Shown piece after piece: positions 3,292-59,603 of a stretch of DNA of 64,000 nt. This DNA comes from an uncultured bacterium (GTDB lineage Bacteria; Acidobacteriota; Aminicenantia; UBA2199). The stretch is taken from contig CALODR010000009.1 of NCBI GenBank assembly GCA_942492175.1, forward strand, positions 168,964 through 232,963, in the 5' to 3' direction. The notes under the pieces are model-generated. The model saw nothing but the letters and a program-made list of their open reading frames with translations. It ran no database searches and was not told the DNA's origin. How positions within the stretch are numbered: the stretch's first letter is position 1; each line of letters starts with the position of its first letter. The translations under genes and the position numbers were made by a program.

Positions 3292-3385
3292 GTGTCTGTC
3301 CCCATTTGATTTTAGGTAGGGGCAGGCTTCACGTCTATCCAATTTTGGGAACCTCATCTGAGGGGGGACACCAGGCCCGCCCCTA
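3292..3385. terminator. GC-rich bidirectional terminator region between convergent genes. It begins with a reverse copy of the GGGGACAG-type repeat.
   Basis: GTGTCTGTCCCC at 3292-3304. GTAGGGG at 3314-3320 pairs with CCCCTAC at 3379-3385. GC-rich island in an AT-rich background. Confidence 0.45.
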
Positions 3386-3393
3386 CGCTTATT

Positions 3394-4257
3394 TTACTTG
3401 TAAGATGTGATGTATTTTTTGAGGCCGGATTTCCAGTGGGTCATGATGTTTAATTCCTGGTCTTTGAGGTGTTTGTTTTCGAGGACTGAGTAGTCGGGAC
3501 GTTTTACTCCCCCACTGAATTCGCCGGGAGCTGCTTTGTTAACTTTAACGCCGTTATCTTTTATTCTGAAGATCTCTTTTGCGAACTCATACCAGGAACA
3601 TTCTCCCTCTGCGGAAACATGGTATAAACCGTATTCTGCATTTTCTTTGATCATATGGACGATCTGAGTGGAAATTTCTTCTGTGAAAGTCGGGGTCAGG
3701 ATCTCGTCGTCAACGACTTTAACCTCACCTTTTTCCTCACCGATCTTTAGTATCTTGTCGACAAAATTATACCCCTTATCCATACATATATTTTTTCCAT
3801 ATATTCCTGAGAGCCTGAGGATATAAAATTTTTTTAGGATCGAGCTTACAAGATATTCACCCGACAACTTCGAATTTGCATATACATTCAGAGGATTGGG
3901 GATGTCCGATTCCATGTATGGTTTTTTCTTTGTTCCGTCAAATACATAATCGGTGCTGATGTGCAATAGAGGTATCTGAAGTTTACTGCATGCATAAGCA
4001 AGATTTGCCGCTCCCAGGCCATTTACCTTAAAGGATTTTATGGGATCCTTTTCACATACTTCTACATGATGGAAAGCTGCTGTATTAATTACCATATCCG
4101 GAGCAAGATTGGTGTTAATAACTGAACGTATCGAATCTCTATCTGCAATATCAACATCTTTAATTGTGAGTGGCGCAACATCAAATCCATCGTTTTTTAA
4201 TACTGAACTGATATCACTGCCCAGCTGTCCGTCCGCACCTGTTAATGCAATTTTCAT
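3394..4257 (-). CDS. rfbD: dTDP-4-dehydrorhamnose reductase
   Basis: 287 aa, RmlD-type; N-terminal Rossmann motif MKIALTGADGQLG and a YAxSK-like segment. Confidence 0.8.
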   Translation of the reverse strand: MKIALTGADGQLGSDISSVLKNDGFDVAPLTIKDVDIADRDSIRSVINTNLAPDMVINTAAFHHVEVCEKDPIKSFKVNGLGAANLAYACSKLQIPLLHISTDYVFDGTKKKPYMESDIPNPLNVYANSKLSGEYLVSSILKKFYILRLSGIYGKNICMDKGYNFVDKILKIGEEKGEVKVVDDEILTPTFTEEISTQIVHMIKENAEYGLYHVSAEGECSWYEFAKEIFRIKDNGVKVNKAAPGEFSGGVKRPDYSVLENKHLKDQELNIMTHWKSGLKKYITSYK

Positions 4258-4258
4258 T

Positions 4259-4825
4259 TTAGAGGATAAATTTATCAGAGTCAGGATTTTTTATCCATTC
4301 ATCCAGGCTTTGAGCGCCGGCATCCTTTTCTGAAAGGAGCGGCTTTTTTACAGGCCAGTTAATATTAATGCTTTTGTCGTTCCACCGTATTCCGGACTCA
4401 CAGGCCGGGTTATATGTCCCTGTGCATAGATATTGAATTTCAACATTTTCCGAGAGGGCACAAAACCCCCTTGCAAAACCGGCAGGGGCCCACAACTGAA
4501 GTCTCTCGTCATGAGAAGTTTCCAGTCCGTACCATTGGCCGAATGTTGGAGAGTTCTTTCTTATATCAGCCGCAACTATAAAAGCTCTTCCCGATAAAAT
4601 GCGCATCAATTTTCCCATTGGCGGCTCCCACTGAAAGTGAAGCCCCCTTACAACTCCCTGTTTTGAGAAAGAATAGTTTTCCTGAACAAAAGATCCGTGG
4701 ATACCCAATTCTATAAAATGATCGCTCCTGTACATCTCCATAAATGACCCTCTCTCATCATGGAATTCTTTTGTTTTTATAACTACTACCCCGTTAAGGT
4801 GTTCAGAAACTTTTTCAAACGGCAT
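4259..4825 (-). CDS. rfbC: dTDP-4-dehydrorhamnose 3,5-epimerase
   Basis: 188 aa cupin with RmlC signature segments (RGLHFQ, FVQENYSFS, WYD-like); adjacent to rfbD. Confidence 0.8.
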   Translation of the reverse strand: MPFEKVSEHLNGVVVIKTKEFHDERGSFMEMYRSDHFIELGIHGSFVQENYSFSKQGVVRGLHFQWEPPMGKLMRILSGRAFIVAADIRKNSPTFGQWYGLETSHDERLQLWAPAGFARGFCALSENVEIQYLCTGTYNPACESGIRWNDKSININWPVKKPLLSEKDAGAQSLDEWIKNPDSDKFIL

Positions 4826-4916
4826 TTCAGTTGCCTCTTATTAGTGGATTTTGAAAACCAGCAAAACTAAATTTAGCAGGATATACTGTTTTTTTCAATA
4901 TATTAGAATAAATAGA

Positions 4917-5678: not shown

Positions 5679-5711
5679 AAAAAAAAACCCTTGGAGGGGT
5701 ATGTGAGGTAA

Positions 5712-5978
5712 TTATGATCCGGATTTGTTAAGAAGGGCTGTTAATCTGGATTTGTATCTTGAAGCAGTTTTTTTATGAATTGTACCTTTTGTGTTTGATT
5801 TATCAATAACTGATATAACCTTTGGAAACAATGCTTTAGCTTCCTCTATTTTTCCGGCTTCTATCTCTTTTTTGAATTTCTTTATTCTATTCTTCATTTT
5901 GGTCTTATTCATTTTGTTGATCAGTCTCTTCTTCTCATCCCGTCTGTACTTCTTGATAGCAGATTTGTGGTTTGCCAT
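5712..5978 (-). CDS. rpsT: 30S ribosomal protein S20
   Basis: MANHKSAIKKYRRDEKKRL... is a canonical S20 N-terminus. GGAGG ribosome-binding site 5 nt upstream of the Met at 5978; the ORF-track start at 6029 is an upstream extension. Confidence 0.85.
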   Translation of the reverse strand: MANHKSAIKKYRRDEKKRLINKMNKTKMKNRIKKFKKEIEAGKIEEAKALFPKVISVIDKSNTKGTIHKKTASRYKSRLTALLNKSGS

Positions 5979-9278: not shown

Positions 9279-9298
9279 TTGTTAGTTTAAAATAAAAT

Positions 9299-23078: not shown

Positions 23079-25489
23079 TTAAAATTTAACATTTGGTTGT
23101 CTTTCAAATCTTGATACTTTGAACTCAATAGTTCCAGGTTTCAACCTTGCCAATATTCCTCCGTGTTCAGATGTAAAAAATAATTTCGTTTTGAACAGCC
23201 TGTATCTTAAAAGTACTTCCCTGTCAGGGAACCCGAAACTGTTCTTGTATCCAAGTGGAAATACAGCGTTATCAGGAAGGCACATCCGGAGGAAATTATA
23301 TGAAGAAGATGTTGCTGAACCGTGATGAGGGACTTTTAATATACTGCATTTGAGATTAATTCCATATTTTTTTATTACAGCATTTTCCGCATTTGTCTCT
23401 ATATCTCCTGTAAACAGGACAGTGTGGTCTCCTGTTGTCAGTTTAATAACCTGCGAATGGTCATTTTTTGTTGAAAAAGGTTCCAGAACTTTGAATGGAT
23501 ATAAAATTTCGATTAGTGACCCACCGTAACTTAATCTGAATCCGGAAGCTACCTTCCTTAACTTTGTTGAGTCTCTGCATTTTTCTGACAAGGTGTCAAA
23601 TATACTGCTGTTATCCGGTGCAGATGAGATCCAGACCTCTTTGGGGCTGAGAATGTTGACTATTTCATTAATACCTCTGCAGTGGTCGGGGTGGTAATGA
23701 GAAACAGCGATCCATCTGATTCTGATCCCCTTTTTAAGAATAAACGGGAGTACGATCTGTTTCCCCACCTCAAAATCACCGAACCCTGAACCACCTCCGT
23801 CTATAAGAAGAGAATCACCTCCCGGGAAAACAATAATATGGGAATCACCCTGCCCGACATCGAGAAAATATATCTCAGGATGGTCCGGATTATATGGCGG
23901 CCCTCTTTGAATTGCGAGGAAGAGGAGTGAAGCGGTCAAAAAAAATAAAAAAAAATTAATATACCTGCACCTGGATAAATAACACAAAGAAAAGAAAGAA
24001 ATGAAAAAAAACAATAGTAATATTACTGATGGGGGAGGCCTGAAGATGGAAAGACCTAAGACTTCTGAAAATGATCCTGCCAGGAAGAAAAAGGTTTTAA
24101 GCAATGTGTCTGAAAGGAAGATTAAAGGATCTGCAGGTAGAATGGGGCAGATCGAAAGGGGAAGCAGCGGGAGAGAGAAAATCATAATTGCAGCAGTGAG
24201 GGGAAGAAGAATTATCCCTGAAAGGATACCGGTGAAGGAGTATCTCAAAAAAAAGAAAAGAGAAACCGGGATGGAGCAGACTGCTGCATTGAGGTTGGCA
24301 GCAGCAGCTTCTTTTAAGTATGAGTTCTTCTTTTTGTCATCTCGGAAGAATATTTTTCTTCCGGAAATTATTCCGGCAGTTGTCAGAAAAGTGAGATTAA
24401 AACCGGGATCGAGAAAACTGCAGGGGTTGATTATAAGGAGAATCAGGCCGGTAAATGAGAGAATGTTGACAGGATCCGCTCTGAGGTAGAATATCTTTGA
24501 TATCGAAAACAGAACTGCCATCAAGACTGCTCTCTCAGCAGATACTTTGAACCCTGTTATGAGTAGGAATAGCAGGAGTATGGATATTAAAATCAGATAT
24601 CTACCCCTCTCTTTTATCCTTGTTCTTCTGAGTATAAACAATACTAATAGTGCAATTATCCCTATGTGAGCACCAGATATTGCAAATAGGTGGAATACTC
24701 CGGTTTCAAGGAGAATCTCTTTAACTTCAGATGAGATCCGTCCTCTGTCACCGAGAAGAAGAGCCTCCAACATCTGCCCCTCTCTCTCCAATCCACCCCC
24801 GTTTTTCAGGTACTCCTTTTCGATCAGTTTTCTTACTTTTCTCTTATCCATCCTGCTGTACGGAATAAAATCCCGGAATTTTTTATCCTTTCTATAAATA
24901 GGGCGGATTTGGAATAGCCGGAGAAGTGGATACCGTTTGCAAGGAGATACGATTCAGATTTTGGAGTAAAAAAATTCAGAGAAGGCCGTGATTTTCTGAT
25001 GGTAGTATCTACTATGACCGTGTCCCCCATACATAAATAACCCAGGTCCCCGTTTATATTTATCTGTAAAACAATACCTGAACTGTTTACATTCCCTTTT
25101 TTATAGATATTCTCTGTTCTTAAAATTATTGTTGATTTGGAATCTCCTATTACAGGGAAGCTTAGAACTTTCCCTCTTATTTTTAAATATTGTTCACTTT
25201 CTATATCCAACGATTTTTTTGCATAGAATATTTCCCTTTTTTCCAGAAACATATGACCGATAAGAAGGGAAATGGCAAAAGATGTTAAATATATTGAAAA
25301 AGTGTATTTTTTAAAAATGAAAGATGTAAGCGAGATACCAGATGTTATAATTACTGCCGGGCCTATAAGATCATCGCAATAATTAGCGATATTAAGCAGG
25401 TTTAGTGTTGTCAGACTTGTGATGAACGGAATTACAAACAATTTGGCCATATAAATGATAATGACTGGAAAATTTGTATATTTCAACAA
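23079..25489 (-). CDS. comEC: DNA internalization-related competence protein ComEC/Rec2, split into two overlapping ORFs by an apparent frameshift
   Basis: The N-terminal fragment (24833..25489) carries the DUF4131/OB region. The C-terminal fragment (23079..24851) carries the competence membrane domain (FAISGAHIGIIALL) and a metallo-beta-lactamase domain (HYHPDH, VPHHGS). The frame change falls in 24833-24851, where there is a T4/A4 run at 24837-24840. Confidence 0.7.
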
Positions 25490-25510: not shown

Positions 25511-26603
25511 TTACTTGATTTTTTTTAGTGCTGCTTTAATAAACTCGAAAATATCCCCGTCAAGAATTTTCTGGGTATTGCCTATCTCCAAATCGGTTCT
25601 GTGGTCTTTGATGCTCTGATAGGGGTGAAGGACATATGAGCGGATCTGGTTCCCCCAGGCTATGTCACCTTTTGAGTTCTCCAGTTTATCTTTCTCCGAC
25701 ATCTTTTTTTTCATCTCATTATCGTATAGCTTTGACATCAACAATTTCATTGCCCGGTCCCGGTTCTGATGCTGGGAACGTTCACTCTGGCATTGAGCAA
25801 CAATGTTTGTCGGAATGTGGGTGATCCTTATGGCCGAATCGGTCTTGTTTACGTGCTGTCCCCCGGCACCGGAAGCTCTGTAAGTATCAACTCTCAGATC
25901 TTTCGGATCAACTTCGATCTCAATAGAGTCATCAACCTCCGGGTATACGAATACAGCGGCAAAAGATGTGTGGCGTCTTTTATTTGAGTCAAAAGGGGAT
26001 ATTCTGACCAGTCTGTGGACACCTATCTCGCGTTTAAGGTATCCGAATACATAGTCTCCTTCGATCCTGACAGTAACACTTTTTATTCCTGCCTCTTCAC
26101 CTGCGAGAATTTCTATTATCTTCGCATTAAAATCCATCCTCTCTGCGAATCTCAGATACATTCTAAGAAGCATTTCTGCCCAGTCCTGGCTCTCAGTTCC
26201 ACCAGCTCCCGGATGGATCGTGAGAAAAGCATTGTTAATATCGCTTTCTCCGCTCAAATAATTCTGTGTTTCAGTTTCATCAATAAACTCTTCAAACTTG
26301 TTAAGTTCAGATTCAATTTCGGTGGCAATATCAGGATCTTCCTCTGCAAGATCGAAGTATGTTTCCATATCGTCGATTCCTGAATTAAATTTGTCCTCTA
26401 CTTTCAGCTGGTTCTCAAGTCTTTTTTTTTCTTTAAGAAGAGGAGCTGAACGTTTCGGGTCGTTCCATATAGATGAATCGAGGAATTCTTCCTCTATCTC
26501 TTTTAACCGGGTGTGCTTTTTCCCGAAGTCAAAGAAACCCCCTGAGATCTTCAGCTTTCTGCTTCAGTTCTCCATATTTGCTTTTGAGTTCCGGGATTTC
26601 CAT
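25511..26603 (-). CDS. prfB: Peptide chain release factor 2 with programmed +1 ribosomal frameshift
   Basis: The reading frame from the ATG at 26603 encodes 24 aa ending ...RGFL and then TGA. A +1 shift at CTT TGA C continues into the RF2 body (GGQ motif in YRASGAGGQHVNKTDSAIR, SPF-containing domain). Total about 363 aa. Confidence 0.85.
26528..26543 (-). other. prfB: RF2 recoding site: SD-like AGGGGG followed by the CTT TGA C shift site
   Basis: The minus strand reads AGGGGGTTTCTTTGAC, matching the conserved prfB autoregulatory frameshift cassette. Confidence 0.8.
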
Positions 26604-33117: not shown

Positions 33118-33187
33118 ATCACTCCCTCCGGAATGATTATATCACCAAAGATTTATTTTTAAATTCTAAAGTGAGAATTTAAATATA

Positions 33188-33228
33188 AAAGGGGACAGGT
33201 AACTTTTGAAAAGTACCTGTCCCCTTTT
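33188..33228. repeat. Perfect palindromic copy of the GGGGACAGGTAcc repeat family in the addA / rsmD divergent promoter region
   Basis: AAAAGGGGACAGGTAAC-TTTTGAAAA-GTACCTGTCCCCTTTT. Its 3' end overlaps a TTGACA -35-like hexamer at 33226-33231. Confidence 0.8.
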
Positions 33229-33270
33229 GACAAGATTGACCTGAAAATGAATAAATAGTATTCTGTTATT

Positions 33271-42455: not shown

Positions 42456-42497
42456 TTCAGGAATAAGTGCAAACAAGGTGTCTGTCCCCTTTTCGAA
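42456..42497. repeat. Extended copy of the repeat family upstream of the DEAD-box helicase gene
   Basis: CAGGAATAAGTGCAAACAAGGTGTCTGTCCCCTTTTCG shares CAGAATAAGTG...GTGTCTGTCCCCTTTT with the copy at 44438-44468. Confidence 0.7.
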
Positions 42498-42681: not shown

Positions 42682-44404
42682 ATGGAAAAGAAGGGCTTTG
42701 AAGATATGGGACTGGACCCACGCATTGTTAAAGGGATCAGAGAGATGGGGTTTGAAAATCCCATGCCGATCCAGGAAAAAAGTTATACCTGTGCTTATGG
42801 AGAGGGAAGGAGATATGGTCGGTCTTGCTCAAACCGGGACAGGGAAAACTGCTGCATTCGGACTTCCACTGATCTCAAAAACAGATATTAACAACAAGAG
42901 TATTCAGTCAATAGTACTAAGTCCGACACGTGAGTTATGTATCCAGATAACAAATGATATAAAAAATTATTCAAAATACATTGAGGGATTCAAAGTTGTT
43001 GCGGTATATGGCGGTGCAAGTATTGAAGGGCAATTGAAAGATCTGAAAAAAAAACCTCAAATGATTGTTGCCACACCTGGAAGGCTTCTCGATATGATAG
43101 AAAGGAAGAGGATTGATCTGTCAAATATAAAATCAGTTGTTCTTGATGAAGCGGATGAGATGCTGAACATGGGTTTCAAAGAAGAGTTAAATGCGATCCT
43201 GGAAACAACTCCAAATTCAAAAAACACTTATCTCTTCTCTGCAACAATGCCTCGGGAAGTAACAAGAATTGCCTCGAGTTATATGAAGGATCCGGTGGAG
43301 ATCCAGGTCGGGAACCGTAATGCAGGTGCCGAGAACGTTTCTCATCAATACTATATGGTGCAGGCAAGCAATAAATACCGTGCTCTTAAAAGGATAGTTG
43401 ATATTAATCCCGATATATATGGAATTGTTTTCTGCAGGACAAGGTCAGATACAAAGGATATCGCAGAGAAACTTATTGTTGACGGTTATAATGCGGATTC
43501 TCTTCATGGTGATCTTTCCCAGGCACAGAGGGATTATGTAATGCATAAATTCAGGATGAAAAATCTCCAGATACTTGTCGCGACAGATGTTGCAGCCCGA
43601 GGATTGGATGTTGATGATCTTACTCATATTATTAATTATAATTTCCCGGATGAACTTCAGGCTTATACACATAGAAGCGGAAGGACGGGGAGAGCCGGGA
43701 AAAAGGGCGTCTCTATTGCGATAATGCATAAAAAAGAGAAACACCGGATCAAGCAGGTCGAGAATCTTATTGGGAAAAAATTTGAATATAAAAAGGTCCC
43801 GGATGGTAAAGATATTTGCGAAAAACAACTCTTCAGCATGATTGACAGAATGGAGAAAGTTGAAGTTGTTGAAACAGAGATCGAGCCGTATCTGGATGTC
43901 ATTTATAAAAAGCTTGACTGGTTGACAAAAGAGCAGGTCATAAAACAATTTGTGTCACTCGAATTCAATCGATTTCTGGAATACTACAAAGACTCTCCAG
44001 ATCTGAATATTGATAATACCGGAAGGCCGGGTAAGAAAGAGAGAGGCCGCGAGAGAGAAAGAGGGCCAAAACTGAATAAGGGTGATGTCACCAGGTTTTT
44101 CGTGAAGTCGGGGAAAAAAGATAAAACAGAACCGCCCCATATTATCGGAATGATCAATGATATGACCGGAACTAAGGATATTCAGATTGGAAAGATCGAA
44201 ATATTGAGTACTTTTTCATTTTTTGAAGTTGATGCCAACTCAACAGACAAAATTGTAAAAAACATCGACAAAGCAGAAGTGAAAGGTGTAAAAACTTATG
44301 TGGAAATTGCTGAGCTTCCAGGGTCATCCAAAAAGAGTAAAACACCACCAAGAAGACCTTTTCCGAAAAAGAAAAGATCAAAGGGAAAAATTAAAACATA
44401 TTAA
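42682..44404 (+). CDS. DEAD-box ATP-dependent RNA helicase (DeaD/CsdA-like with C-terminal DbpA-type RNA-binding domain); reading frame interrupted at an A6 run
   Basis: The N-terminus in frame 1 (42682: MEKKGFEDMGLDPRIVKGIREMGFENPMPIQEK) continues in the frame of ORF 42698..44404 (VIPVLMEG.DMVGLAQTGTGKTAAF, DEAD, SAT, HRSGRTGRAG). The shift is at AAAAAA 42776-42781. A long 5' leader precedes the gene. Confidence 0.75.
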
Positions 44405-44437: not shown

Positions 44438-44468
44438 GTTCAGAATAAGTGTCTGTCCCCTTTTTTTA
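44438..44468. repeat. Repeat-family copy directly downstream of the DEAD-box helicase
   Basis: CAGAATAAGTGTCTGTCCCCTTTTTTT, in the same orientation as the copy at 42456-42497. Confidence 0.7.
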
Positions 44469-44550: not shown

Positions 44551-45858
44551 GTGGAATGGATTCCCGGGACTAAAAAAATGAATATATTTAATAAGTTGGA
44601 TATTGGAGACGTACAAGAGTTTTATTTAAAAAAATTTCTCACTTCAGAGTCATTCGATTACATTTCAAAAGGGCAGGATTTTCGGCACGATCTAGATATG
44701 TCGAAATTTCACTGGCTTTTCTCGAACATTCCAGATGGATCACGGGTCCTTGATCTTGGCTGTGGCTGTGGTAATTTAAATTTTTTAAAAAGCAAATCCT
44801 GCTATCTGGCAGGTGTTGATATTTCACCTCTGAATTGTGAAAGAGCTCTTAAGAATGGATATGACCATGCTATATGTGCAGATTTAAAAGAAGTTCCGTT
44901 ACAATCTGATTCTTTTGATGTTGTTATTTCAATAGATGTTATGGGCCACATTGGTTTTGAAGACAAAGACAAGTGCATTTTTGAAATGAAAAGAATCCTT
45001 AAGAAGGGAGGAATAACAATTCATGGGATAGAAAGTGATAATGTGAATTACTCATCACTTTCCAAGAAAGAGTTAAAGCAATTTGTTGAAGTAGATGGCC
45101 ATATCGGTATGGAGGGTCAGAAGGAAAATGAAGAAAGATTTAAAAAATATTTCGATCATGTTGACAGCCAGTTCCAATTTAATATTCCGATGACAGCTGC
45201 AGAAATATTAAAACAGCAGAAAGAGTATCCCGAAAAATTCCAAATTGATCCCTATATCATAAACCGAATAAATAAATTTGACGGACATGAAAGGTATATT
45301 TGGAATTTGGCTATGGGGTTTGTATTTGAACGGATAATGGAATTCAGGCCTTATATAAAGGACCAATGGGGCTTCCTTTTATTAAGAGCATCTGAAGATC
45401 CCCTAAAAAAAGATAATTATGGATCTGCAGAAATCTCAGGATATCTGCGCCCTGTCTCTTTCGGTTCAGGGAATGATCTCTATCACATTCTGAACGGATT
45501 TCATGATCCGGAAGGTGATGGCTCTCTTGAAAATTCATACAGGTGGACAGGTTCTGAAGCAGAGTTCCAGGTACCGTCTTCTGAAAAATATCAATTATGT
45601 ATTGGTGCCAGCAGGCCGGAGGGAGCAAAACCGGCGAAATTCACTGTAAAGGTTCAGAATGGAGGATCCCTAAGCTTGAAATCTTCTGATGAAAAAATGG
45701 TATTTGATATAAAAGGTCCGATGGGGAACAGTACAGATCCCGTTGTTGTCACTATCAAAAGTAATACTTTTATTCCCGAAAGATTGGCAGTCCGGAAAAA
45801 TGAAAACGGAGATAAAAGGGAGCTTGGAATCCGTTTGTACTGGATAGACTGGATTTGA
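44551..45858 (+). CDS. Class I SAM-dependent methyltransferase with an uncharacterised ~230-aa C-terminal domain
   Basis: VLDLGCGCGNL (motif I), DVVISIDVMGH (motif II/III). The C-terminal half is unassigned. The start may be the Met at 44578. Confidence 0.55.
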   Translation: MEWIPGTKKMNIFNKLDIGDVQEFYLKKFLTSESFDYISKGQDFRHDLDMSKFHWLFSNIPDGSRVLDLGCGCGNLNFLKSKSCYLAGVDISPLNCERALKNGYDHAICADLKEVPLQSDSFDVVISIDVMGHIGFEDKDKCIFEMKRILKKGGITIHGIESDNVNYSSLSKKELKQFVEVDGHIGMEGQKENEERFKKYFDHVDSQFQFNIPMTAAEILKQQKEYPEKFQIDPYIINRINKFDGHERYIWNLAMGFVFERIMEFRPYIKDQWGFLLLRASEDPLKKDNYGSAEISGYLRPVSFGSGNDLYHILNGFHDPEGDGSLENSYRWTGSEAEFQVPSSEKYQLCIGASRPEGAKPAKFTVKVQNGGSLSLKSSDEKMVFDIKGPMGNSTDPVVVTIKSNTFIPERLAVRKNENGDKRELGIRLYWIDWI

Positions 45859-46048: not shown

Positions 46049-47197
46049 ATGAAATCAAAAATTCTTGGAAATAATATTTTTTACTTTCTCATTTCAATTC
46101 TGACCATTGCGATAATATGTCTTTTTTTATTGTCAATGAACCTGCAGGGGAAGGTCGTGAATGAGGATAAACCTGAAAAGGGGACAGGTACCTTTAATAT
46201 TTTGGAACTTTGGCAGGTGAGTGAAGGAGAGGGGGATCCTTTTGGAAATATAAGATCTATCCTTATTTCAGAAGATGGGACCTTCTGCTGCCTTGATGAT
46301 AAGCTTAAGCGGATGTTTCTTTATGATAAGGATGGCAAATTCATTAAAGGTTTCGGGAAGACAGGAGAAGGCCCGGGTGAAATAAAATTGTTCAGGCAGG
46401 CCAGATTATATAATGCAGGAGATAAAATCGCAGTCCAGGATACTGACCGAATTCACTATTTTAACTGGAGTGGAGAATTTCTGGAGTCAATACCCAATTT
46501 GAAACAGAGAAGTCCCATACTATTTCTTGACCAATATAATTTTATTACTGCGCCAAGAGATATTCTGGCAACTCCTGAAGGTATCGCGGAGGTAAAGCAA
46601 ATAAATCTTAAAACCGGTAAAGCTAAGTTGATAACAAAATTTTCGATGTACAAAGGGGGGAGCATTCAAAATGAAAATAACCAGGCATCGATTATTGCCA
46701 ATGGACTTACCCCTTTGTTTGAGCTTGGGATATATAAAGACCGACTCTACTATGGGGTTAGTGACAAATATAGAATAGAAATTTCAGATATGACCGGTAA
46801 AGCAATCAGTGTCTTCGGGCTTAAAAGGGAAAAAACAAAAGTGACTGAAGAGGAGAAAGTAGAACCGATACTTCAGGCAGCCAAAGGACTGGCCCCGGAA
46901 GAACTGCTTAGAGATCTGGCAAAAAAATTACCAAATGAAGAAACTTTCTTTATTGATATTCAGTCCCATAATGGACTGATATGGGTGTTTGTACCTGACT
47001 GGAAACGTACAAACTCACGGCAAATTGATATTTTTTCTCCCGAGGGGAAATATCTTTTCAGACGATTTATAAAAACAGATGAAAATGAATCTATTTTTTC
47101 ATCCCCTTTGATCCACAAGAAATCAGTATATCTGGTAATACAGAATGAGGATGATGAATTTCGGGTGGCCAAATACAGCATAGATCTTCCAAAATAG
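46049..47197 (+). CDS. Six-bladed beta-propeller-like lipoprotein, paralog of 37380..38510
   Basis: Start moved to the ATG at 46049, 7 nt after GGAGGG. Signal/TM segment, GKTGEGPGEIK motif. Carries an in-frame copy of the intergenic repeat (EKGTGTF). Confidence 0.5.
   Translation: MKSKILGNNIFYFLISILTIAIICLFLLSMNLQGKVVNEDKPEKGTGTFNILELWQVSEGEGDPFGNIRSILISEDGTFCCLDDKLKRMFLYDKDGKFIKGFGKTGEGPGEIKLFRQARLYNAGDKIAVQDTDRIHYFNWSGEFLESIPNLKQRSPILFLDQYNFITAPRDILATPEGIAEVKQINLKTGKAKLITKFSMYKGGSIQNENNQASIIANGLTPLFELGIYKDRLYYGVSDKYRIEISDMTGKAISVFGLKREKTKVTEEEKVEPILQAAKGLAPEELLRDLAKKLPNEETFFIDIQSHNGLIWVFVPDWKRTNSRQIDIFSPEGKYLFRRFIKTDENESIFSSPLIHKKSVYLVIQNEDDEFRVAKYSIDLPK
46176..46196 (+). repeat. Intragenic copy of the GGGGACAGGTACC repeat
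   Basis: AAAAGGGGACAGGTACCTTT lies inside the CDS 46049..47197 and reads in frame as E-K-G-T-G-T-F. Confidence 0.7.
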
Positions 47198-52926: not shown

Positions 52927-54648
52927 TTATTTCCTTTTTACTTCTATCACCTTGTTTGTATCATCATCTGAGATCATATCTTCTGCATGGATGAGTATGT
53001 TGTAATCATTTTGACTGATCATTCTCAGAGGAATTCTCAGTTTTGTCCTATTCTTGATGATTGAGATCTCTTTTGTGTCACTTTTTATTTCTTTCCCATC
53101 CATATCTATTATTTTGACAGTAATTCTAAGAAGAGCAACTTCTTTATCTTTTACTTTTTTAAGTTTAAATTCACTTAATTCAAATTCCAGTATGCCGTTG
53201 CTGAAGGAGGCGGAACTTATCTTTATTGCTTTCTTTTCAACTCCTTTTATAATTCCCAGCCCCATGTTGTAATTTATCAGGGCGAAATGGGGACTAAAAC
53301 CCTCTTTGTTCAAAATTTCAATTTTCAAGATGTTATCGGGAACTTTTATCTCTGTTTTTTTTATAATAGGTTTATTGCCAGTTATGGGCATATGGATCTT
53401 ATACAGGTCGAGATCAGTGTTACGGAAATGATCAGGTATTGAAATCTTAAAAACAGTTCCTGATCTTTTTTTTTCTTCTTTAACTATTTTTGCATCATCA
53501 ACTGTTACAGGCAATTTAAACATAGGATTCTTGGATATCATGTTCAAAACAACAAGCTTTTTCTCAAAATCATTCAGACTGAGGTATCCCCGGGACTTCT
53601 CCAGATTGCGGATTGTATGTATGCTTATATTTTTTCGTTTTGCTCTGACATCTATCTGTAAATGCCCTCCTTTCATGTCATCGGGGTTACGGAAGGTCAA
53701 TTCATAATAAGCTTTATGAACATTTGTTATTTTGTCATTTATTGATTTTGTGTCTCCTGTAAAGTATCTCCCCCCACTTAGTGAGGATAATACTTTTAGA
53801 AAAGTTTCTCCTGATTCTGAATCAGTCCCTCTCCCTCCCGTAGGGTTGATAAAGAAAAGAACTGCTCCGCTCCTAAGGAGGCTGCCGGCCATTTTACTTG
53901 CATGAGTGTCACCTCTGGAATATGATGAGTTTGATATCCCTTCTGAGAATAAGTATATAAATTTTGTCCCGGCTATATTTGCTATTGCATAATAAAGGGA
54001 TTGGAATGAAGATGAGAATTGTGAGCTTTTATTGGACAAATAGCGGGTTTGCTGGATGAGAAAGAACATTCTTTCGTCATGCTGATATTTTGTTTTTTCT
54101 CCTTCGCTATTATCCACACCTGAGCTGATACTCCTTTCGTTGTCTCTTCCTTTAACTCTTTTCTTTATAATCGTATTTATTCTCTGCTTGTCGTTTGTAG
54201 GACCCCCCAGGTAAGACAGTCCCTGAAAACCCTCGATCTTGAATAAAACAAATTTTGTGTCGGGTCCACTTCTGTTGACCAATTCTTCTGCGATTGCTTT
54301 TGATTTCATGATTGACGTGGATTTTGAAAGAGCAGTGTCAAATACAAGAACTATTACTTTCTCTTCTTTTCCGCTTTTAAACCATTTCGGTTTTTCATTA
54401 TTATCATTGAGGAATTTCCTCTTTATAAAATTGAAATCACTGACCTTTTTATCATTCACATACAGTTCAATTTCGTTTTGATTCAGGTCTGTGACGGAGT
54501 TTCCTCTTGCATCAACTGCATAGATAGGGACGATCCACTCTTCAACAACAATATTTTCAACAATTTGTTTCTCGGAGTTGATATTCAATGATAATGCCAT
54601 TATCAATGTGACAGCAATAAGGGATGTGATACTAAATTTTTTTGTCAT
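52927..54648 (-). CDS. Secreted hypothetical protein, possibly vWA-like
   Basis: Start at the Met at 54648 (GGAGG ribosome-binding site 9 nt upstream). Signal peptide. Weak vWA-like segment (KVIVLVFDTALSKS). No confident family. Confidence 0.3.
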   Translation of the reverse strand: MTKKFSITSLIAVTLIMALSLNINSEKQIVENIVVEEWIVPIYAVDARGNSVTDLNQNEIELYVNDKKVSDFNFIKRKFLNDNNEKPKWFKSGKEEKVIVLVFDTALSKSTSIMKSKAIAEELVNRSGPDTKFVLFKIEGFQGLSYLGGPTNDKQRINTIIKKRVKGRDNERSISSGVDNSEGEKTKYQHDERMFFLIQQTRYLSNKSSQFSSSFQSLYYAIANIAGTKFIYLFSEGISNSSYSRGDTHASKMAGSLLRSGAVLFFINPTGGRGTDSESGETFLKVLSSLSGGRYFTGDTKSINDKITNVHKAYYELTFRNPDDMKGGHLQIDVRAKRKNISIHTIRNLEKSRGYLSLNDFEKKLVVLNMISKNPMFKLPVTVDDAKIVKEEKKRSGTVFKISIPDHFRNTDLDLYKIHMPITGNKPIIKKTEIKVPDNILKIEILNKEGFSPHFALINYNMGLGIIKGVEKKAIKISSASFSNGILEFELSEFKLKKVKDKEVALLRITVKIIDMDGKEIKSDTKEISIIKNRTKLRIPLRMISQNDYNILIHAEDMISDDDTNKVIEVKRK

Positions 54649-54727
54649 TAAGTTTACCTCCAATATTTAGTAATACGGAAAGTTTTAAAATATCTGGAAT
54701 TATTCCCTAAAGTTTACTGAATTTTTC

Positions 54728-54746
54728 AAAAGGGGACAGGTACCTT
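54728..54746 (+). repeat. Repeat-family copy in the promoter region of 52927..54648
   Basis: AAAAGGGGACAGGTACCTT. Confidence 0.7.
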
Positions 54747-54813
54747 AAAATCCTGCTAATTTTCTATAAGAGCACAATTTGCCTGTAGGGTGAATGTTCC
54801 TATTAAAGGTATT

Positions 54814-55275
54814 TCAATCTTCTATGATATTTTCTTTCCACGCAATTACTGAAGGTGGGATAACAGCGACCAGAAAGTTAAAAAAAAGGCAGAGTATAAG
54901 TCCCAGTGCATAATGTCCACGGTGAGTGAGTACCAACCAGTTGTATCTGACCGACAAGACGGTCCCGAATAACAGCAAGGGGGCAATAACCCCGAATATA
55001 TTGTATGAGTGCCTGACCGAATCAAGAATTACTCCTTTTTCTCTTTCATCGAGTTTGTGAGATTTTGCTCTGTATAATCTCCATATCCCAGGCTTTACAA
55101 TTGACAAATAAAAAGAAGTTACCGCATTAACCAAAAAGACCAGAGCTCCTGATATGAGCAATCCATTCCAGTGTGAATATTCACCGATAAGGAATAAAGT
55201 AAAAAAAACTATTGCAGAAATGTACATATTCAACACGCCCATTCTCCTTGATTTTATTGAAAATTGTTTACCCAT
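54814..55275 (-). CDS. Four-transmembrane protein partnered with an XRE-family regulator (DUF2178/DUF2975-like pairing)
   Basis: Four predicted helices. Overlaps the upstream helix-turn-helix gene by 8 nt. Confidence 0.35.
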   Translation of the reverse strand: MGKQFSIKSRRMGVLNMYISAIVFFTLFLIGEYSHWNGLLISGALVFLVNAVTSFYLSIVKPGIWRLYRAKSHKLDEREKGVILDSVRHSYNIFGVIAPLLLFGTVLSVRYNWLVLTHRGHYALGLILCLFFNFLVAVIPPSVIAWKENIIED

Positions 55276-55528
55276 TTTTACCTCCTTTAAGATCCATTAA
55301 TTGTTCGCTCATCGGTTTTAAGGGATTCGGGGAAAAGATGAAATCTACAGGGAGTTTGAAAAATTCTGAGATCCGGAAAGCCAGATCAAGACTGGGGTTG
55401 TATTCTTCTCTCTCAAGGTATCCTACTGTTTGAAAATTTACTCCAATATTATCTGCCAGTTCTTGCCGCGATATTCCCTTCTCCCTTCTTAAAGTACCGA
55501 TCCTGTTGAAAATCTTTCTTTGTTTCAT
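55268..55528 (-). CDS. XRE-family helix-turn-helix transcriptional regulator (YozG-like short form)
   Basis: Start at the Met at 55528. LRREKGISRQELADNIGVNFQTVGYLE is a canonical HTH_3 motif. Confidence 0.7.
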   Translation of the reverse strand: MKQRKIFNRIGTLRREKGISRQELADNIGVNFQTVGYLEREEYNPSLDLAFRISEFFKLPVDFIFSPNPLKPMSEQLMDLKGGKNG

Positions 55529-55609
55529 GTATGTATTATAGTATAAAACGTTGTATATATACAACAAAAAATATAAAAAAATAAACAAATACTGATTTTT
55601 TATATATCT

Positions 55610-55630
55610 GAAAGGGGACAGGTACCATTG
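55610..55630 (+). repeat. Repeat-family copy upstream of the helix-turn-helix regulator gene
   Basis: GAAAGGGGACAGGTACCATTG. Confidence 0.7.
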
Positions 55631-55683
55631 AAAATAACAAAAAATAGTACCTCTAAGTGATGTTCGGAACAGATTAGTGGTGT

Positions 55684-56993
55684 CTATTTATATTTTATCC
55701 ACTTTATAATTTCTTTAACAGACGGTTTTTTGCCATACATCAGAATTCCAATCCTGAATATTTTAGCACCCAGCCATGCCAGCAGAATAGTAAATCCTAC
55801 ACTCAGAGTGATAGAAAGTAGTATCTGTGAGAATGCGGGTGTTGCAACACTAATCCTCATAAACATCAAAGTCGGCGTAAATAACGGAAACAGTGATGTC
55901 CCGACCACAAGCGGAGTGTTTGGATTCTGAGTGACCATTATGCCTATCATGAATGGAATAATAAGAAGGTAAGTTATGGGAGCTGCATATTGCTGAGCTT
56001 CCTGATCGGTATTTACCGATGCACCAACAATTGAAAATAAGATGGAATACATAAAATAACCTATTATGAAGAAGATAATGAAATATATACCAAGCTCCAA
56101 TGTTAGGAAATTTAAAATAGATTTATCTATTCCTAGAGAGAATTTCCCCATTAATAACCATCCCATAACCATCCATATCCCCACCTGGGTTAAACCTGCC
56201 AGGCCGATTCCGATGATCTTCCCGTAAAAGAGACTCTGTGTATTGGTCGATGAGATTAAAACTTCTACTATCCTGTTGTTTTTTTCTTCAATCACGCCTC
56301 TCATGATCAGCTGACCGTATCCCATAAGGACAGAAAATAAAATAGTGAGCATGAAAATAGACATCATATATGCGGTTGTTGAGGATGATTTTGTCGCACC
56401 TTCCTCTTTAATTACAAAAAGATCCGGTTTTATTTCTGCAGTTGCTTTTTGGACAATCTCAACAATTCCCGGATCCTCTATTTTTTCTTTTAGTATCTTT
56501 GAGGAGAGGATGCTTTTAACAGAACTGTTTAAGAATCTGTTCAATTCAAAATCTGAAATATTCTGGGCACAGAAATACATTCTTCTTGTTTCTGCAATGT
56601 TAGATGGTATCAGCAGGAGGCCGCTGATCTTTTTTTCAAGTATCTCATTCTTATAATGATCAGCAAGCACAAAATCCTTATTGCTTTTATCTTCAATGCT
56701 CTTTTCATAGTTTTTTATCATTGAGCTCTGTTCTTCAAGCAAATCAGTATCGGCTATAAACTTTAGTTTCAGTTTTTCTTTGACATATTCATTACTATTA
56801 TTAATCTCAAGAAAATCTCTTTTTATGATATCTGAGTAATCGGTAATTTTTATGACCTTCTCCTCTCTTCCCACCTTGGTAAGAAGCATCGGTATAAATA
56901 TAAAAGCTGCCATTATTGCCGGCGTAAGGATTGTTGCAATTATGAATGATTTCTTTTTTACTATCTGTTTATACTCTCTGATTATTATTGCTG
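55684..56993 (-). CDS. ABC-2 type transporter permease
   Basis: Start at the Met at 56993 (AAGGAAGGGG ribosome-binding site). N-terminal transmembrane helix, a large extracytoplasmic loop, and five C-terminal helices (ABC-2 family architecture). Confidence 0.6.
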
Positions 56994-57004
56994 CGATTTT
57001 CATT

Positions 57005-57925
57005 TTATTCCCCTTCCTTATTAGAACCGCCTGAAGCATTTCTGATAAAAATATTGTTAAGTGATGGCTCCGTTAACGAGAAACTGTTAATCGAAATTTT
57101 TGAGACCAGATCTTTAAGAAGTTTTTCCTTATCTTTGATATCATCTAATTCGATCTCCATCTCCTTGCCGTAATCCTTGAATTCTTTCACATATTTTAAT
57201 GTAGATACAAACTCACCATTACCTTCATAATTGATTTTAATAAATTTCTTTCCATATTCGGATTTTACATCATTCAGATTTCCATCAAGGACTTTTTTCC
57301 CTTTGCTTACCATTACTATTGAATCAACAATTTTTTCTGCATAATCCATAAGATGGGTTGAGAAAATAATCGTTATCCCCTCTCTTTTCATTTCAAGGAT
57401 AAGATCTTTCACCAACTCGATATTGATAGGGTCAAGCCCGGAAAATGGTTCATCGAGAATAAGGAGATCGGGAGAATGGATTATTGTTGTTATTATCTGA
57501 AGTTTTTGTGCCATACCCTTTGATAATTCTTCGATTTTCTTGTCGTTGTAATCAAAGAGATCAAATTTTTTAAGTAGTTCTTCGCCACGGATTTTAATAG
57601 ATCCTGAGCTCATACCCTTAAGTTTACCGAAGAATTGTAAAGTTTCTGAAACCTTCATCTTTCTATACAATCCTCTCTCTTCAGGAAGGTAGCCAATCCT
57701 GTCCTTCAATTTCTCATTGAACTTCTCTCCAAGTATCTTTATATCACCACTGTCCGGAGCGATTATATTCATGATCATTCTTATCGTTGTGGTTTTTCCT
57801 GCTCCGTTTGGACCCAGCAGTCCGAGGATCTCCCCCTTTCTGACTGTAATAGATATGTTGTCTACGGCTTTTTTCCCGTCAAATTCTTTAACTAATCCAC
57901 TTAATTCCAGCATAGTATTATCCAT
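57005..57925 (-). CDS. ABC transporter ATP-binding protein
   Basis: Walker A GPNGAGKTT; signature LSKGMAQKL; Walker B LLILDEP; H-loop. Confidence 0.85.
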   Translation of the reverse strand: MDNTMLELSGLVKEFDGKKAVDNISITVRKGEILGLLGPNGAGKTTTIRMIMNIIAPDSGDIKILGEKFNEKLKDRIGYLPEERGLYRKMKVSETLQFFGKLKGMSSGSIKIRGEELLKKFDLFDYNDKKIEELSKGMAQKLQIITTIIHSPDLLILDEPFSGLDPINIELVKDLILEMKREGITIIFSTHLMDYAEKIVDSIVMVSKGKKVLDGNLNDVKSEYGKKFIKINYEGNGEFVSTLKYVKEFKDYGKEMEIELDDIKDKEKLLKDLVSKISINSFSLTEPSLNNIFIRNASGGSNKEGE

Positions 57926-57987
57926 GATCCCTCCGAAAATGGTATGTAACAGATACCCTATTTTATCACAAAAGGTTACATATATGA

Positions 57988-59481
57988 TTAAAACTCAGAT
58001 TTTTTTACACTATCAAACTCTTCGGAGATCTCCTTAGAAGGAAGCTTATCTAATAAACTGACCATGATAATTGCAATCGCTGAGAACAGGAATCCGGGAA
58101 CGATCTCATAAAGATCGAATATTCCTCCCGAAATATTTTTCCATATAAGAACAGTGATCCCGCCGGTGAAAATTCCTCCTATTGCACCTTTAGCTGTCAT
58201 CCTTTTCCAGAAAAGGGATAGTATTACCACAGGCCCGAAGGTCGCTCCGAATCCGGCCCATGCATATGCAACAAGTTCAAGGACACTGCTCTCGGGATTA
58301 AGGGCGATAACAAATGCAATTGCAGCAACAATGATAACCGATATTCTGCTGATCCAGACTAATTCTTTATCGCCCGGTTTCCTCTTTAATAAAATTCTAT
58401 AGAGGTCTTCAGTGATGGCGGATGAAGTTACAAGCAATTGGGAGTCAGCGGTGCTCATTACTGCTGCAAGAATTGCGGCAAGGAGTATGCCTCCTATCAA
58501 GGGCGTGGTGAGTTGATTTACAAGTACCATAAATACTGTTTCGGAAGCGGCTTTTCCAATAAGCGGGTTATCAATTAGCAATATTCTTCCTACTATTCCC
58601 ACTACAACAGCAGCAGACAAACTGATTATTACCCATCCCATAGCGATTCTTCTTGCCTTTTTTACTTTATCAGAAGAACTGATTGCCATGAATCTTGCAA
58701 GTATGTGCGGCTGTCCGAAATATCCAAAACCCCAGGCTACAAGTGACAGGACCGGTATGAACTTCAGGTTTTCTCCTGAAGTAGCAGTAAATATATTTAA
58801 AAGTTCAGGATTTATTGCCTTGGCTTTTGCAATTGTTTGGCTGAACCCTCCTAAAGCGGATACACCGAGAATAGGTATTATTATAATTGCAAAGAACATA
58901 AGCATTCCCTGGAAAAAATCTGTCCAACTGACTGCCATGAATCCACCCAGAAAAGTATAGCCGATGATTACAAATACGCCGATTGAGAGTGCGAAAAAAT
59001 AAGGGATATTAAAAACCGTGTAAAAGAGTTTTGCCCCTGCAACAAAGCCGGAAGAAGTGTAAAGTAAAAAGAAAATTATAATAAAAATTGCGGAGAGGAT
59101 TCTTAATGTCCCGCTTTTATCACGAAAACGGTTCTCAAAGAAGACGGGCAATGTGATCGAATTTCCTGACACCTGAGTATATTTTCTTAATCTTTTTGCA
59201 ATGAACTTCCAATTGAGGTAGGTGCCGATCATAAGTCCCAATGCTATCCATCCTGCTTCAAGGCCTGCCAGATATGCATATCCCGGAAGTCCGAGGAGAA
59301 GCCATCCGCTCATATCAGAAGCCTGGGCGCTTAAAGATGTCACCCATGCATTCAGTCCTCTTCCCCCGAGGACATAATCAGAGAGGTTCTTTGTCCTGTT
59401 ATAAAAGTACCAGCCGATGGTCATCATAAAAATAAGATAAATGGCGAACGAAATAAAAGTTCCTGCGCTTGCTCCTGACAT
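57988..59481 (-). CDS. Sodium:solute symporter (SSS family, PutP/PanF-like)
   Basis: 13-TM SSF architecture with conserved GGRGLN..W and STADS-like segments. Start taken at the Met at 59481. Confidence 0.7.
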   Translation of the reverse strand: MSGASAGTFISFAIYLIFMMTIGWYFYNRTKNLSDYVLGGRGLNAWVTSLSAQASDMSGWLLLGLPGYAYLAGLEAGWIALGLMIGTYLNWKFIAKRLRKYTQVSGNSITLPVFFENRFRDKSGTLRILSAIFIIIFFLLYTSSGFVAGAKLFYTVFNIPYFFALSIGVFVIIGYTFLGGFMAVSWTDFFQGMLMFFAIIIIPILGVSALGGFSQTIAKAKAINPELLNIFTATSGENLKFIPVLSLVAWGFGYFGQPHILARFMAISSSDKVKKARRIAMGWVIISLSAAVVVGIVGRILLIDNPLIGKAASETVFMVLVNQLTTPLIGGILLAAILAAVMSTADSQLLVTSSAITEDLYRILLKRKPGDKELVWISRISVIIVAAIAFVIALNPESSVLELVAYAWAGFGATFGPVVILSLFWKRMTAKGAIGGIFTGGITVLIWKNISGGIFDLYEIVPGFLFSAIAIIMVSLLDKLPSKEISEEFDSVKKSEF

Positions 59482-59542
59482 GGCAATTCTCCGGAATTGA
59501 TTTAAGAAATATAATAAACACTCCGACAAAATATATCAAGCC

Positions 59543-59603
59543 AAAAGGGGACAGGTAACTTTGGTTATCTGAAAATATCAACCATGTACCTGTCCCTTTT
59601 TCT
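59543..59603. repeat. Palindromic copy of the repeat family in the divergent region between the SSS symporter and the surface-protein gene
   Basis: AAAAGGGGACAGGTAAC-N27-TACCTGTCCCTTTTT. Confidence 0.75.

Follow-up and report, generated by a model that had tools for sequence, protein, structure and literature searches.

A 21-base repeat family with features of REP/REPIN elements in an Aminicenantes-type Acidobacteriota genome

The repeat family and its copies

The window analysed here, a 64-kb stretch of DNA from an Aminicenantes-type Acidobacteriota genome that was scanned over its whole length, holds eleven copies of a 21-base repeat with the consensus cAAAAGGGGACAG-GTAC-CTTTTg. Each unit, about 21 nt long, consists of an A-tract, the core GGGGACAG, a variable segment of 4-5 nt, and a T-tract, and the copies carry either GGTAC or GACAC. 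A-runs on the GGGG side, previously ascribed to every copy, accompany 10 of the 11. The single unit is barely palindromic, its self-complementarity amounting to 5 bp (AAAGG/CCTTT).

Three single units on the minus strand are of the GACAC variant: one (CAAATGGGGACAGACACCTTTTT; 3286..3308, 31.2 bits) lies between the convergent genes 2694..3281 (+) and rmlD (3394..4257, -), another (42472..42494, 32.5 bits) upstream of a DEAD-box helicase gene (42698..44404), about 31 nt ahead of its conserved extended -10 (TGGTATACT), and the last (44443..44465, 26.1 bits) between the helicase gene and a methyltransferase gene (44551..45858). Single units are also found in frame within two genes, namely addB (27239..30001, -), where the copy at 28824..28846 (-, 31.7 bits) encodes K-N-G-T-G-T-F, and a beta-propeller lipoprotein gene (ATG 46049..47197) whose product matches DUF5128, where the copy at 46175..46197 (+, 35.2 bits) encodes E-K-G-T-G-T-F directly behind the signal/anchor segment. 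On the plus strand, the unit at 54727..54749 (32.9 bits) separates a 153-aa gene (54814..55275, -) from a gene for a VWA-like secreted protein (52927..54663, -) and has TTGAAA after it when read along the gene strand, while that at 55609..55631 (29.8 bits), the only copy adjoining the XRE regulator gene (55268..55528, ATG at 55528), stands between this gene and an ABC-2 permease gene (55684..57039, -).

The remaining units form two inverted doublets. Doublet 1 (33186-33229), which separates the addA promoter from the divergent rsmD promoter, is composed of a left unit (33186..33208, +, 32.3 bits) and a right unit (33207..33229, -, 32.8 bits); together these make a near-perfect palindrome of 41 nt, bordered by A4 and T4. 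The left unit of doublet 2 (59542-59602) lies at 59542..59564 (+, 33.8 bits), upstream of a sodium:solute symporter gene (57988..59529, -) and 7 nt upstream of its conserved -35 (TTGATA); the right unit (AGGGACAGGTACA; 59580..59602, -, 26.1 bits) follows after 29 nt between the arms. Among the doublets of the window and its relatives, the spacing of the arms ranges from 12 to 29 nt.

The original prediction recognised the family and counted eight copies. All the coordinates it listed hold (33188-33228, 59543-59603, 54728, 55610, and 46176, along with the GACAC variants at 3292, 42476, and 44449), whereas its count was too low and the addB copy was missed, so that EKGTGTF in the lipoprotein gene is one of two in-frame coding copies. 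The supposedly perfect palindrome at 33188-33228 contains one bulged A, and the arms at 59543-59603 are inverted but imperfect, one reading AGGGACAGG. A TTGACA does adjoin the first palindrome, but relatives conserve a different -35, TTGACC, located 10 nt beyond it.

Abundance, position, and folding

The excess over chance that had been claimed was borne out. With up to two mismatches, GGGGACAGGTAC has 13 matches in the window versus 1.5 expected, and none of 100 shuffles reached as many; with up to one mismatch, AAAGGGGACAG has 12 versus 1.3. A position matrix derived from these copies detected exactly 11 sites scoring at least 26 bits and none between 12 and 26 bits, that is, no half-decayed copies, while Markov simulations predict 0.7 sites of at least 12 bits. 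Near-identical units thus occur at a high copy number of about one per 6 kb; the stretch from 4 to 28 kb has none. Both strands are used (5 plus, 6 minus). The proposed bias toward intergenic DNA was confirmed as well: 93% of the window is coding, and 9 of the 11 copies are intergenic (binomial P = 1.5e-9 against 7% non-coding DNA). At the gathering score, Rfam gave no match for the window or for 17 motif-bearing loci, the only hits being sub-threshold hairpin look-alikes.

Promoter-like hexamers stand just downstream of most copies. Of the nine intergenic copies, five are located ahead of promoters in the space separating divergent genes, and in each of the eight with a downstream gene, the strand reading CTGTCCCCTTTT points at that gene, with a TTGAC/TTGAA/TTGAT hexamer often 0-12 nt beyond the unit on that strand. 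The units upstream of the rsmD, DEAD-box helicase, and symporter genes abut promoters conserved among relatives.

As originally described, both doublets sit between divergent genes, where they are upstream of both promoters. Both fold into strong hairpins: doublet 1 reaches -17.9 kcal/mol as DNA (z = -8.4) and -27.9 kcal/mol as RNA, and doublet 2 reaches -14.6 kcal/mol (z = -4.8) and -31 kcal/mol, respectively. The folding of single units does not exceed that of shuffles. The window has no excess of ordinary terminator-like sites (15 versus 13 expected).

Conservation in related Aminicenantes genomes

Members of the family are carried by the related genomes L224, L231, L232, L233, L236, and L242, and are absent from about 17-20 kb of each of L234, L226, L228, and L235, which are equally or nearly as close. 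Sites shared with the window lie within addB and ahead of the rsmD and DEAD-box helicase genes, and copies persist at orthologous sites over approximately 20-35% nucleotide divergence. Specifically, the addB copy has orthologs in L224, L231, and L242; the left unit of doublet 1 is kept in L224, L233, L236, and L231; and the helicase-upstream unit has counterparts in L224 (a decayed doublet), L232, and L242 (degenerate). Doublet 1 as a whole is conserved in L224, L233, and L236, with just one compensatory pair seen. The symporter promoter is conserved in L226 and L228, both of which are without the unit. Position and orientation vary at shared sites: depending on the genome, 31 to 52 nt separate the motif from the -10 of the orthologous helicase promoter, and the copy beside the L232 rsmD promoter is in the opposite orientation.

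The variable segment takes genome-specific forms: every copy in L232 and L233 has GGCAC, and those of L231 have GACAC, compared with GGTAC or GACAC in the window. Such variants, common to dispersed copies of one genome, imply that the copies change together. Filled and empty sites could be compared at two positions. Neither the addB copy against motif-free L234 nor the L224 copy upstream of prfB against the motif-free window and L231 (where the prfB spacer alignment is weak) shows a length difference, which points to an origin by substitution or by very old insertion; no insertion footprint was therefore found at either site. Neither the window nor about 200 kb of DNA from related Aminicenantes contains a gene for a Y1 transposase (Y1_Tnp), and a key partner expected of a REP-type family is thus unseen in this lineage.

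Occurrence in other phyla and association with RAYT-like genes

The core 13-mer/16-mer recurs in genome-specific hairpin repeats of at least eight phyla. Hosts of repeats with the 16-mer include Collinsella, two Elusimicrobiota MAGs, Propionibacteriaceae UBA6238, and Coprococcus, in which they occur about once per 2 kb. Whole hairpins are copied in these genomes, with stems that are common within a genome and different between genomes. Most lie 15-30 nt past stop codons, and in Collinsella and other taxa such hairpins end in T-runs. In Coprococcus the unit reads GGGGACAGGTACCT-CC-GTCCCC and is clearly an imperfect palindrome, in which CC is bulged out. Viral contigs contain no match to the 16-mer, versus 38 for a shuffled control, and their 14-mer matches are without any stem.

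In Firmicutes, palindromes of the same motif family flank RAYT-like genes. The best NCBIfam model for these genes is NF047646 (REP-associated tyrosine transposase), with scores below its equivalog cut-off; they carry PF01797 and obtain far higher scores with the RAYT model than with the IS200 model. The L244/L245 gene is preceded by ATTAGGGACAGGTCCCTTGTCCC, with TTTAGGGACAAGGGAC standing where the contig ends, and the L243 and L240 genes are flanked by GGACAATGTACCTGTCCC and GGGACACGGTGCCCTGTC, respectively. In Acetoanaerobium (L247), the flanking inverted pair is perfect over 25 nt (...TTAGGGACGGTTCTTTTTGA), Sporomusa (L248) has TTTGGGGTCAGGCC... and ...GGCCTGACCCCGAA, and a RAYT-like pseudogene of Cytobacillus (L072) ends at an exact motif hairpin. 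Family palindromes are absent from 409 kb of control DNA. The link to transposases concerns one clade, found through a single pseudogene lead, and in the one Collinsella RAYT-like gene examined (32% identical) the motif is not flanking.

Relationship to REP/REPIN and IS200/IS605 systems

REP/REPIN repeats and their RAYT transposases are known from Pseudomonas and Enterobacteria (PMC3116915, PMC3337134, PMC5581495), and their anatomy includes A/T-flanked doublets and long palindromic forms (PMC3337134). The window copies look like a lineage-specific family of this type, comprising singlets and REPIN-like inverted doublets. They share with REP/REPIN elements a unit of about 20 nt, a mostly extragenic location, hairpin-forming inverted doublets, long palindromic forms, a genome-specific "master" variant, vertical persistence at orthologous sites, and, in other genomes, same-family palindromes flanking RAYT-like genes; the A- and T-runs bordering the window doublets recall the GI REPINs of SBW25. 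They differ in the scant palindromic character of the single unit, in the many copies placed, unusually for REPs, ahead of promoters in the space separating divergent genes, and in two in-frame genic copies that bear no sign of insertion. Moreover, classical REPs are species- or genus-specific, whereas the core of this family is common to several phyla; the window family also lacks a GTAG tag, and its cognate RAYT is unseen in the lineage. IS200/IS605 elements, whose subterminal imperfect palindromes are recognised by a Y1 HUH transposase, and their ORF-less (PATE-like) derivatives offer a further parallel in imperfect, sometimes bulged palindromes such as the Coprococcus unit and in flanked genes with PF01797, but the flanked genes fit the RAYT model better, and the 21-nt window units neither enclose an internal sequence nor come as a left end matched by a right end.

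The eleven copies probably make up a family of the REP/REPIN type that is linked to a RAYT-like enzyme whose gene lies outside the window. If the mechanism resembles that of REP/REPIN-RAYT and IS200/IS605 systems, a RAYT-type HUH tyrosine transposase, present as a single-copy gene at another place in the genome, would recognise the core on single-stranded DNA (predicted target AAAAGGGGACAGGTACCTTTT) and cut and rejoin at unit borders, so that units would spread and homogenise. Units would survive only at tolerated sites of a compact genome, i.e., upstream of -35 boxes, behind genes, and at two permissive in-frame positions. Given their strong stems between A- and T-tracts, the doublets may have been co-opted as two-way terminator/insulator hairpins between divergent promoters. 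Under the original prediction, a known REP/MITE consensus would have counted against the finding; what the evidence now favours comes near to that, although the consensus itself is absent from Rfam and the searchable literature.

Alternative explanations

The absence of decayed copies and the persistence at orthologous sites are more typical of selected sites than of selfish DNA, which argues against a REP-type origin. The units could instead be working sites of a domesticated RAYT-like protein, part of a horizontally shared recognition system and kept by selection, an alternative that we regard as possible but unlikely. It would account for the crispness, the age, and the origin without insertion; the core GGGG(A/T)CAGG would then have stayed unchanged across at least eight phyla, and in Aminicenantes selection would keep the sites within genes and ahead of promoters, where they might serve as insulators or in chromosome handling. 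Some of the same evidence, namely crisp sites, conservation at orthologous promoters, copies that seemingly arose without an indel, genome-wide variants that fit co-evolution with a single protein, and the uniform orientation just ahead of promoter hexamers, is also consistent with binding sites of a many-target DNA-binding protein (a global regulator, a nucleoid protein, or the neighbouring XRE regulator) that would modulate transcription from upstream of promoters and co-evolve with its sites. This reading is also unlikely, because the distance to the -10 and the arm spacing vary, the L232 copy is reversed, two copies lie in genes and one between convergent genes, and other phyla have the core in post-stop hairpins and beside RAYT-like genes. 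For the XRE regulator in particular, whose operator set the copies had been proposed to form, neither a fixed promoter position nor a fixed half-site spacing is seen and one copy per 6 kb is far too dense for a local regulator; the idea is unsupported.

Enrichment through biased uptake of self DNA in natural transformation would suit the nearly equal use of strands, the high density, the strong yet incomplete intergenic bias, and the in-frame copies at coding positions that tolerate them, one of which is in the repair gene addB. The terminator-like inverted pairs, the variant forms and patchy distribution in related genomes, the two copies without length change, the lack of the 16-mer in viral contigs, and the presence of comEC in the window fit as well, and uptake sequences of Neisseriaceae and Pasteurellaceae are likewise short, over-represented two-strand motifs with terminator-shaped inverted pairs, lineage variants, and copies in repair genes. 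We nevertheless consider a DNA uptake sequence very unlikely: the 16-mer is found in at least eight phyla rather than in one competent lineage, a range that no lineage-specific uptake receptor explains, whole hairpins with their stems are copied in other phyla, the family is associated with RAYT-like genes, and the window comEC is split by a frameshift. It is at least as hard to credit that the copies are intrinsic terminators, the doublets acting two-way and the singlets being weak or decayed. The doublets do combine an A-tract, a strong stem, and a T-tract, post-stop hairpins with T-run ends occur in Collinsella and other taxa, and ordinary terminator-like sites are no more frequent than expected; but instead of GC-rich hairpins and T-tracts downstream of transcription units, the window has doublets upstream of two divergent promoters, with nothing there to terminate, and singlets that do not fold, and the identical 13-nt sequence across phyla, the genome-wide variants, and the in-gene copies would be left unexplained. 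Sequence-conserved terminator hairpins, such as the TRIT motif of Mycobacterium tuberculosis, are fixed-sequence repeats at gene ends. The motif hairpins of Collinsella, Propionibacteriaceae, and Elusimicrobiota resemble them, whereas the strong hairpins of the window separate divergent promoters, and the majority of its copies are singlets that do not fold.

Repeat family in the window

The original prediction described at least eight near-identical short repeats, mostly in regulatory regions and one inside a coding sequence, and this motif family is real. In the window, GGGGACAGGTAC with up to two mismatches was matched 13 times against 1.5 expected and AAAGGGGACAG with up to one mismatch 12 times against 1.3 expected, and shuffled sequences came nowhere near either count. 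Membership was settled by reading the flanks site by site and by scanning with a position matrix made from the copies, which gave exactly 11 members (3286, 28824, 33186, 33207, 42472, 44443, 46175, 54727, 55609, 59542, and 59580). Every member scores 26-35 bits, the interval of 12-26 bits is empty throughout the window, and the scan found no decayed copies there. The coordinates and details first reported were right, with the copy inside addB (28824) overlooked. The family consensus is c-AAAA-GGGGACAG-(GTAC or ACAC)-C-TTTT-g, with no conservation beyond it. Nine copies are intergenic in a window that is 93% coding (P = 1.5e-9), and the two in-gene copies are read in the identical frame, as K/E-K/N-G-T-G-T-F. 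The window otherwise carries ordinary housekeeping genes, and RsmD relatives, a Candidatus Aminicenantes AddB fragment, and the match of a VWA model specific to Acidobacteria place it in the Aminicenantes-type Acidobacteriota. Two direct-repeat families returned by the repeat finder (D1 and D2, 34900-36750) are unrelated to the motif, being coding BNR/Asp-box repeats of a sortilin-like protein (34654..37320).

Structure and promoter settings

The palindromic copies form two inverted doublets (33186-33229 and 59542-59602), both flanked by A4 and T4, which fold strongly as hairpins or cruciforms: -17.9 and -14.6 kcal/mol as DNA (z = -8.4 and -4.8) and -27.9 and -31 kcal/mol as RNA. Single units fold no better than shuffles. 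Rfam returned zero matches at the gathering score across the window and 17 loci, and a scan of doublet 1 by E-value brought up nothing but generic hairpin look-alikes, with Termite-leu in first place (30.7 bits vs a cut-off of 51); tRNA and tmRNA genes are absent from the window. A separate 71-nt hairpin (3316-3386, arms GTAGGGGCAGGC ... GCCCGCCCCTAC, about -42 kcal/mol as RNA) lies between convergent genes and adjoins the motif copy at 3286-3308; its 12-mer does not occur a second time in the window.

Divergent genes lie on either side of both doublets. Doublet 1 is located between the addA promoter (extended -10 TGGTGATATAAT, minus strand) and the conserved rsmD promoter (33239-33273), which reads TTGACC-N17-TATTCT followed by 6 nt to the ATG and has no Shine-Dalgarno sequence, so that the rsmD mRNA is apparently leaderless. 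The prfB promoter of a related locus (L224, 3385-3440) has the same layout, TTGACC-N17-TAGAAT-N6-ATG. At doublet 2, the conserved -35 of the symporter gene lies 7 nt beyond the doublet end. The CTGTCCCCTTTT-reading strand aims at the downstream gene in every intergenic copy having one. The promoter geometry is not fixed, which speaks against the earlier suggestion that the motif is a regulatory site bound by the neighbouring XRE-family regulator, a reading that is supported only in part. At the orthologous DEAD-box helicase promoter, the distance from motif to -10 is 31, 37, or 52 nt depending on the genome, and in locus L232 an inverted copy stands beside the rsmD promoter. The XRE gene and an overlapping 153-aa gene (family unassigned) lie between two direct-orientation copies (54727-55631); in motif-free relatives L226 and L228, different genes occupy this position after the ABC-2 permease gene.

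Conservation among related Aminicenantes genomes

The rsmD region was retrieved from related metagenome contigs. Between the window and the closely related loci L224/L230, RsmD is 95% identical, with only about 66-84% identity at the nucleotide level. The family occurs at matching places (upstream of both rsmD and the helicase gene, and within addB) in L224/L230, L231, L232, L233, L236, and L242, and no copy was found in the 17-20 kb available from each of L234, L226, L228, and L235, which are as close or nearly so. The variant depends on the genome: the window has GGTAC or GACAC, L232 and L233 have GGCAC in all copies, and L231 has GACAC. Since each genome has its own variant, the two doublet arms change together, and only one formally compensatory pair arose from this concerted change. 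L242 has a perfect addB copy and degenerate intergenic ones.

Two filled-versus-empty comparisons show no length change. In addB, the codons AAA AAG GGG ACA GAC ACC TTT (L224, L231) correspond to AAA AGA GAT ACA AAT ACT TTT in motif-free L234, and the copy upstream of L224 prfB aligns without indels to unrelated spacer in the window and L231. An outgroup AddB search, aimed at an ancient insertion of 21 nt, yielded a single partial protein that stops short of the site. In L231 (9884-9960), about 27 nt interrupt the right arm of the rsmD-upstream doublet (AAAGGTGTCT, cacactctatataggattggtgactcc, GTGTCCCCTTTT), which shows a route of doublet breakdown.

Occurrence of the core in other phyla

A scan of 185,579 species genomes with AAAGGGGACAGGTACC returned at least 118 stretches. 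Among the matches listed, GTDB-split Collinsella species are the most numerous, accompanied by Propionibacteriaceae, Elusimicrobiota, Acidobacteriota, Planctomycetota, Alphaproteobacteria, several Bacillota, Aminicenantes, and others; the 13-nt core is likewise found in repeats of Actinomycetota, Bacillota, Elusimicrobiota, Planctomycetota, and further phyla. Because the database is large, some stem-type pairs could be chance terminators; the multi-copy families cannot be put down to chance. Copies within a genome share a stem (CCACCACAAAGG in Collinsella, AACTGAGAAAGG in Elusimicrobiota, GAACCAAAAGG in Propionibacteriaceae, and GGGGACGGAGG, about one copy per 2 kb, in Coprococcus), and these flanking stems vary from genome to genome. 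The core forms a 9-nt loop in Collinsella and part of the stem of a CC-bulged imperfect palindrome in Coprococcus; what is common is therefore the sequence and not a fold, and the idea of a conserved loop on a variable stem was dropped. Sister hairpins with variant loops (GGTGCAAAGGGGTCAGGTTACTTTGCACC, GCCAAAAAGGGACAGGTTTATTTTGGC) stand beside the canonical one in Collinsella (L040, ~1758-1800; L096, ~5400), and their GGGGTCAGG form matches the repeats flanking a Sporomusa transposase gene described below.

Most hairpins in other phyla lie 15-30 nt past stop codons. The genes upstream of them have no common theme, and all-against-all BLAST of ORFs near these copies revealed no recurrent neighbour. 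Large contigs hold only 1-3 exact copies each, indicating low copy number outside Aminicenantes and Coprococcus. Stem mispairs of the G:T type are about as frequent as those of the A:C type, so that neither strand stands out as the transcribed one. When the doublet and the Coprococcus unit were compared with plasmids by BLAST, all matches were weak or unannotated. In 2.9 million viral contigs, AAAGGGGACAGGTACC has no exact match vs 38 for a shuffled 16-mer, and the 14-mer GGGGACAGGTACCT has only 67, the chance occurrences having non-complementary flanks; this scarcity may reflect avoidance or only composition effects of the G-run and KpnI site. Full-text literature searches with the motif or parts of it brought up nothing beyond primers and unrelated sequences, and apparent likenesses to rRNA segments, sigma-54, Pho-box, LexA, KOPS, Chi, and Tn3-family inverted repeats failed on inspection.

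Link to RAYT-like transposases

In Cytobacillus (L072), a Y1-transposase pseudogene terminates exactly at a motif hairpin. Its homologues carry PF01797, and their top NCBIfam model is "REP-associated tyrosine transposase" (RAYT), scoring far above the IS200 model and below the equivalog cut-off. When these genes were fetched with their flanks, the same motif family was present: ATTAGGGACAGGTCCCTTGTCCC 45 nt upstream and TTTAGGGACAAGGGAC at the contig end (L244/L245), GGACAATGTACCTGTCCC downstream (L243), and GGGACACGGTGCCCTGTC and GGGACGAGGGACCTGTC downstream (L240). In Acetoanaerobium noterae, the two halves of a perfect inverted pair (25 nt, containing TTAGGGACGGTTCTTTTTGA) bracket the gene, as do TTTGGGGTCAGGCC... 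and its complement in Sporomusa termitida. Control DNA (409 kb) contained no match to a loose pattern for the palindrome family, and the motif is absent from the flanks of a more distant Collinsella homologue. In locus L241 (477-3683), a tandem pair of group II intron-type reverse transcriptase genes (RVT_1 plus GIIM) lies directly upstream of a truncated RAYT-like gene. Neither the window nor the related Aminicenantes loci (~200 kb sampled) contain a RAYT-like gene, as expected for a single-copy gene in a sample of this size.

Interpretation of the repeat family

Descriptions of REP/REPIN-RAYT systems come mainly from Proteobacteria, and the systems are regarded as populations that are specific to a species and inherited vertically. 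The candidate family resides in an uncultured Acidobacteriota lineage, and its core flanks one clade of RAYT-like genes. In published descriptions, REP/REPIN elements are extragenic units of ~20 nt that occur as singlets and as inverted doublets; doublets are flanked by A/T runs, long palindromic forms exist, master variants differ between genomes, and persistence is vertical (PMC3337134; PMC5581495). The window family matches this anatomy. One RAYT group, present in 21 bacterial classes with Clostridia among them, is flanked by repeats of low copy number (PMC5581495), which would fit the cross-phylum, mostly low-copy pattern of the core. We therefore consider the window copies to be, on balance, probably a family of the REP type linked to a RAYT-like enzyme, which would mobilise the units, and the doublets may additionally act as terminators or insulators. 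The family is most likely of a known kind (REP/REPIN); its consensus is undescribed and the conservation of its core is unusually wide.

Several points weigh against a REP-type origin: no partner gene is seen in this lineage, single units show little palindromic symmetry, many of the copies precede promoters, decayed copies are missing, the sites are old, and two comparisons lack an insertion footprint. The same points keep alive two other explanations, that the copies are binding sites maintained by selection, which we regard as unlikely, or that they are uptake sequences, which is considerably more improbable. A purely terminator function fails on location and is marginally the least probable of all. 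If the REP-type reading is confirmed, the DNA target of a single RAYT clade would have stayed the same across phyla, giving a handle on target recognition by RAYT enzymes and on their spread. As regards annotation, the family cautions against taking such near-promoter motifs for regulator binding sites.

Other genes in the window

On the minus strand, comEC (23079-25489) is broken into two ORFs that overlap in different frames: 24833..25489 carries DUF4131, and 23079..24851 carries Competence and Lactamase_B. Its L224 counterpart is a single 790-aa gene; the break reflects a frameshift, pseudogene formation, or faulty assembly. The release factor 2 ORF (25511-26368, minus strand, with upstream sequence to ~26650) encodes 285 aa without the N-terminal part, compared with a 346-aa call in L242, and is consistent with the programmed +1 frameshift usual for prfB.
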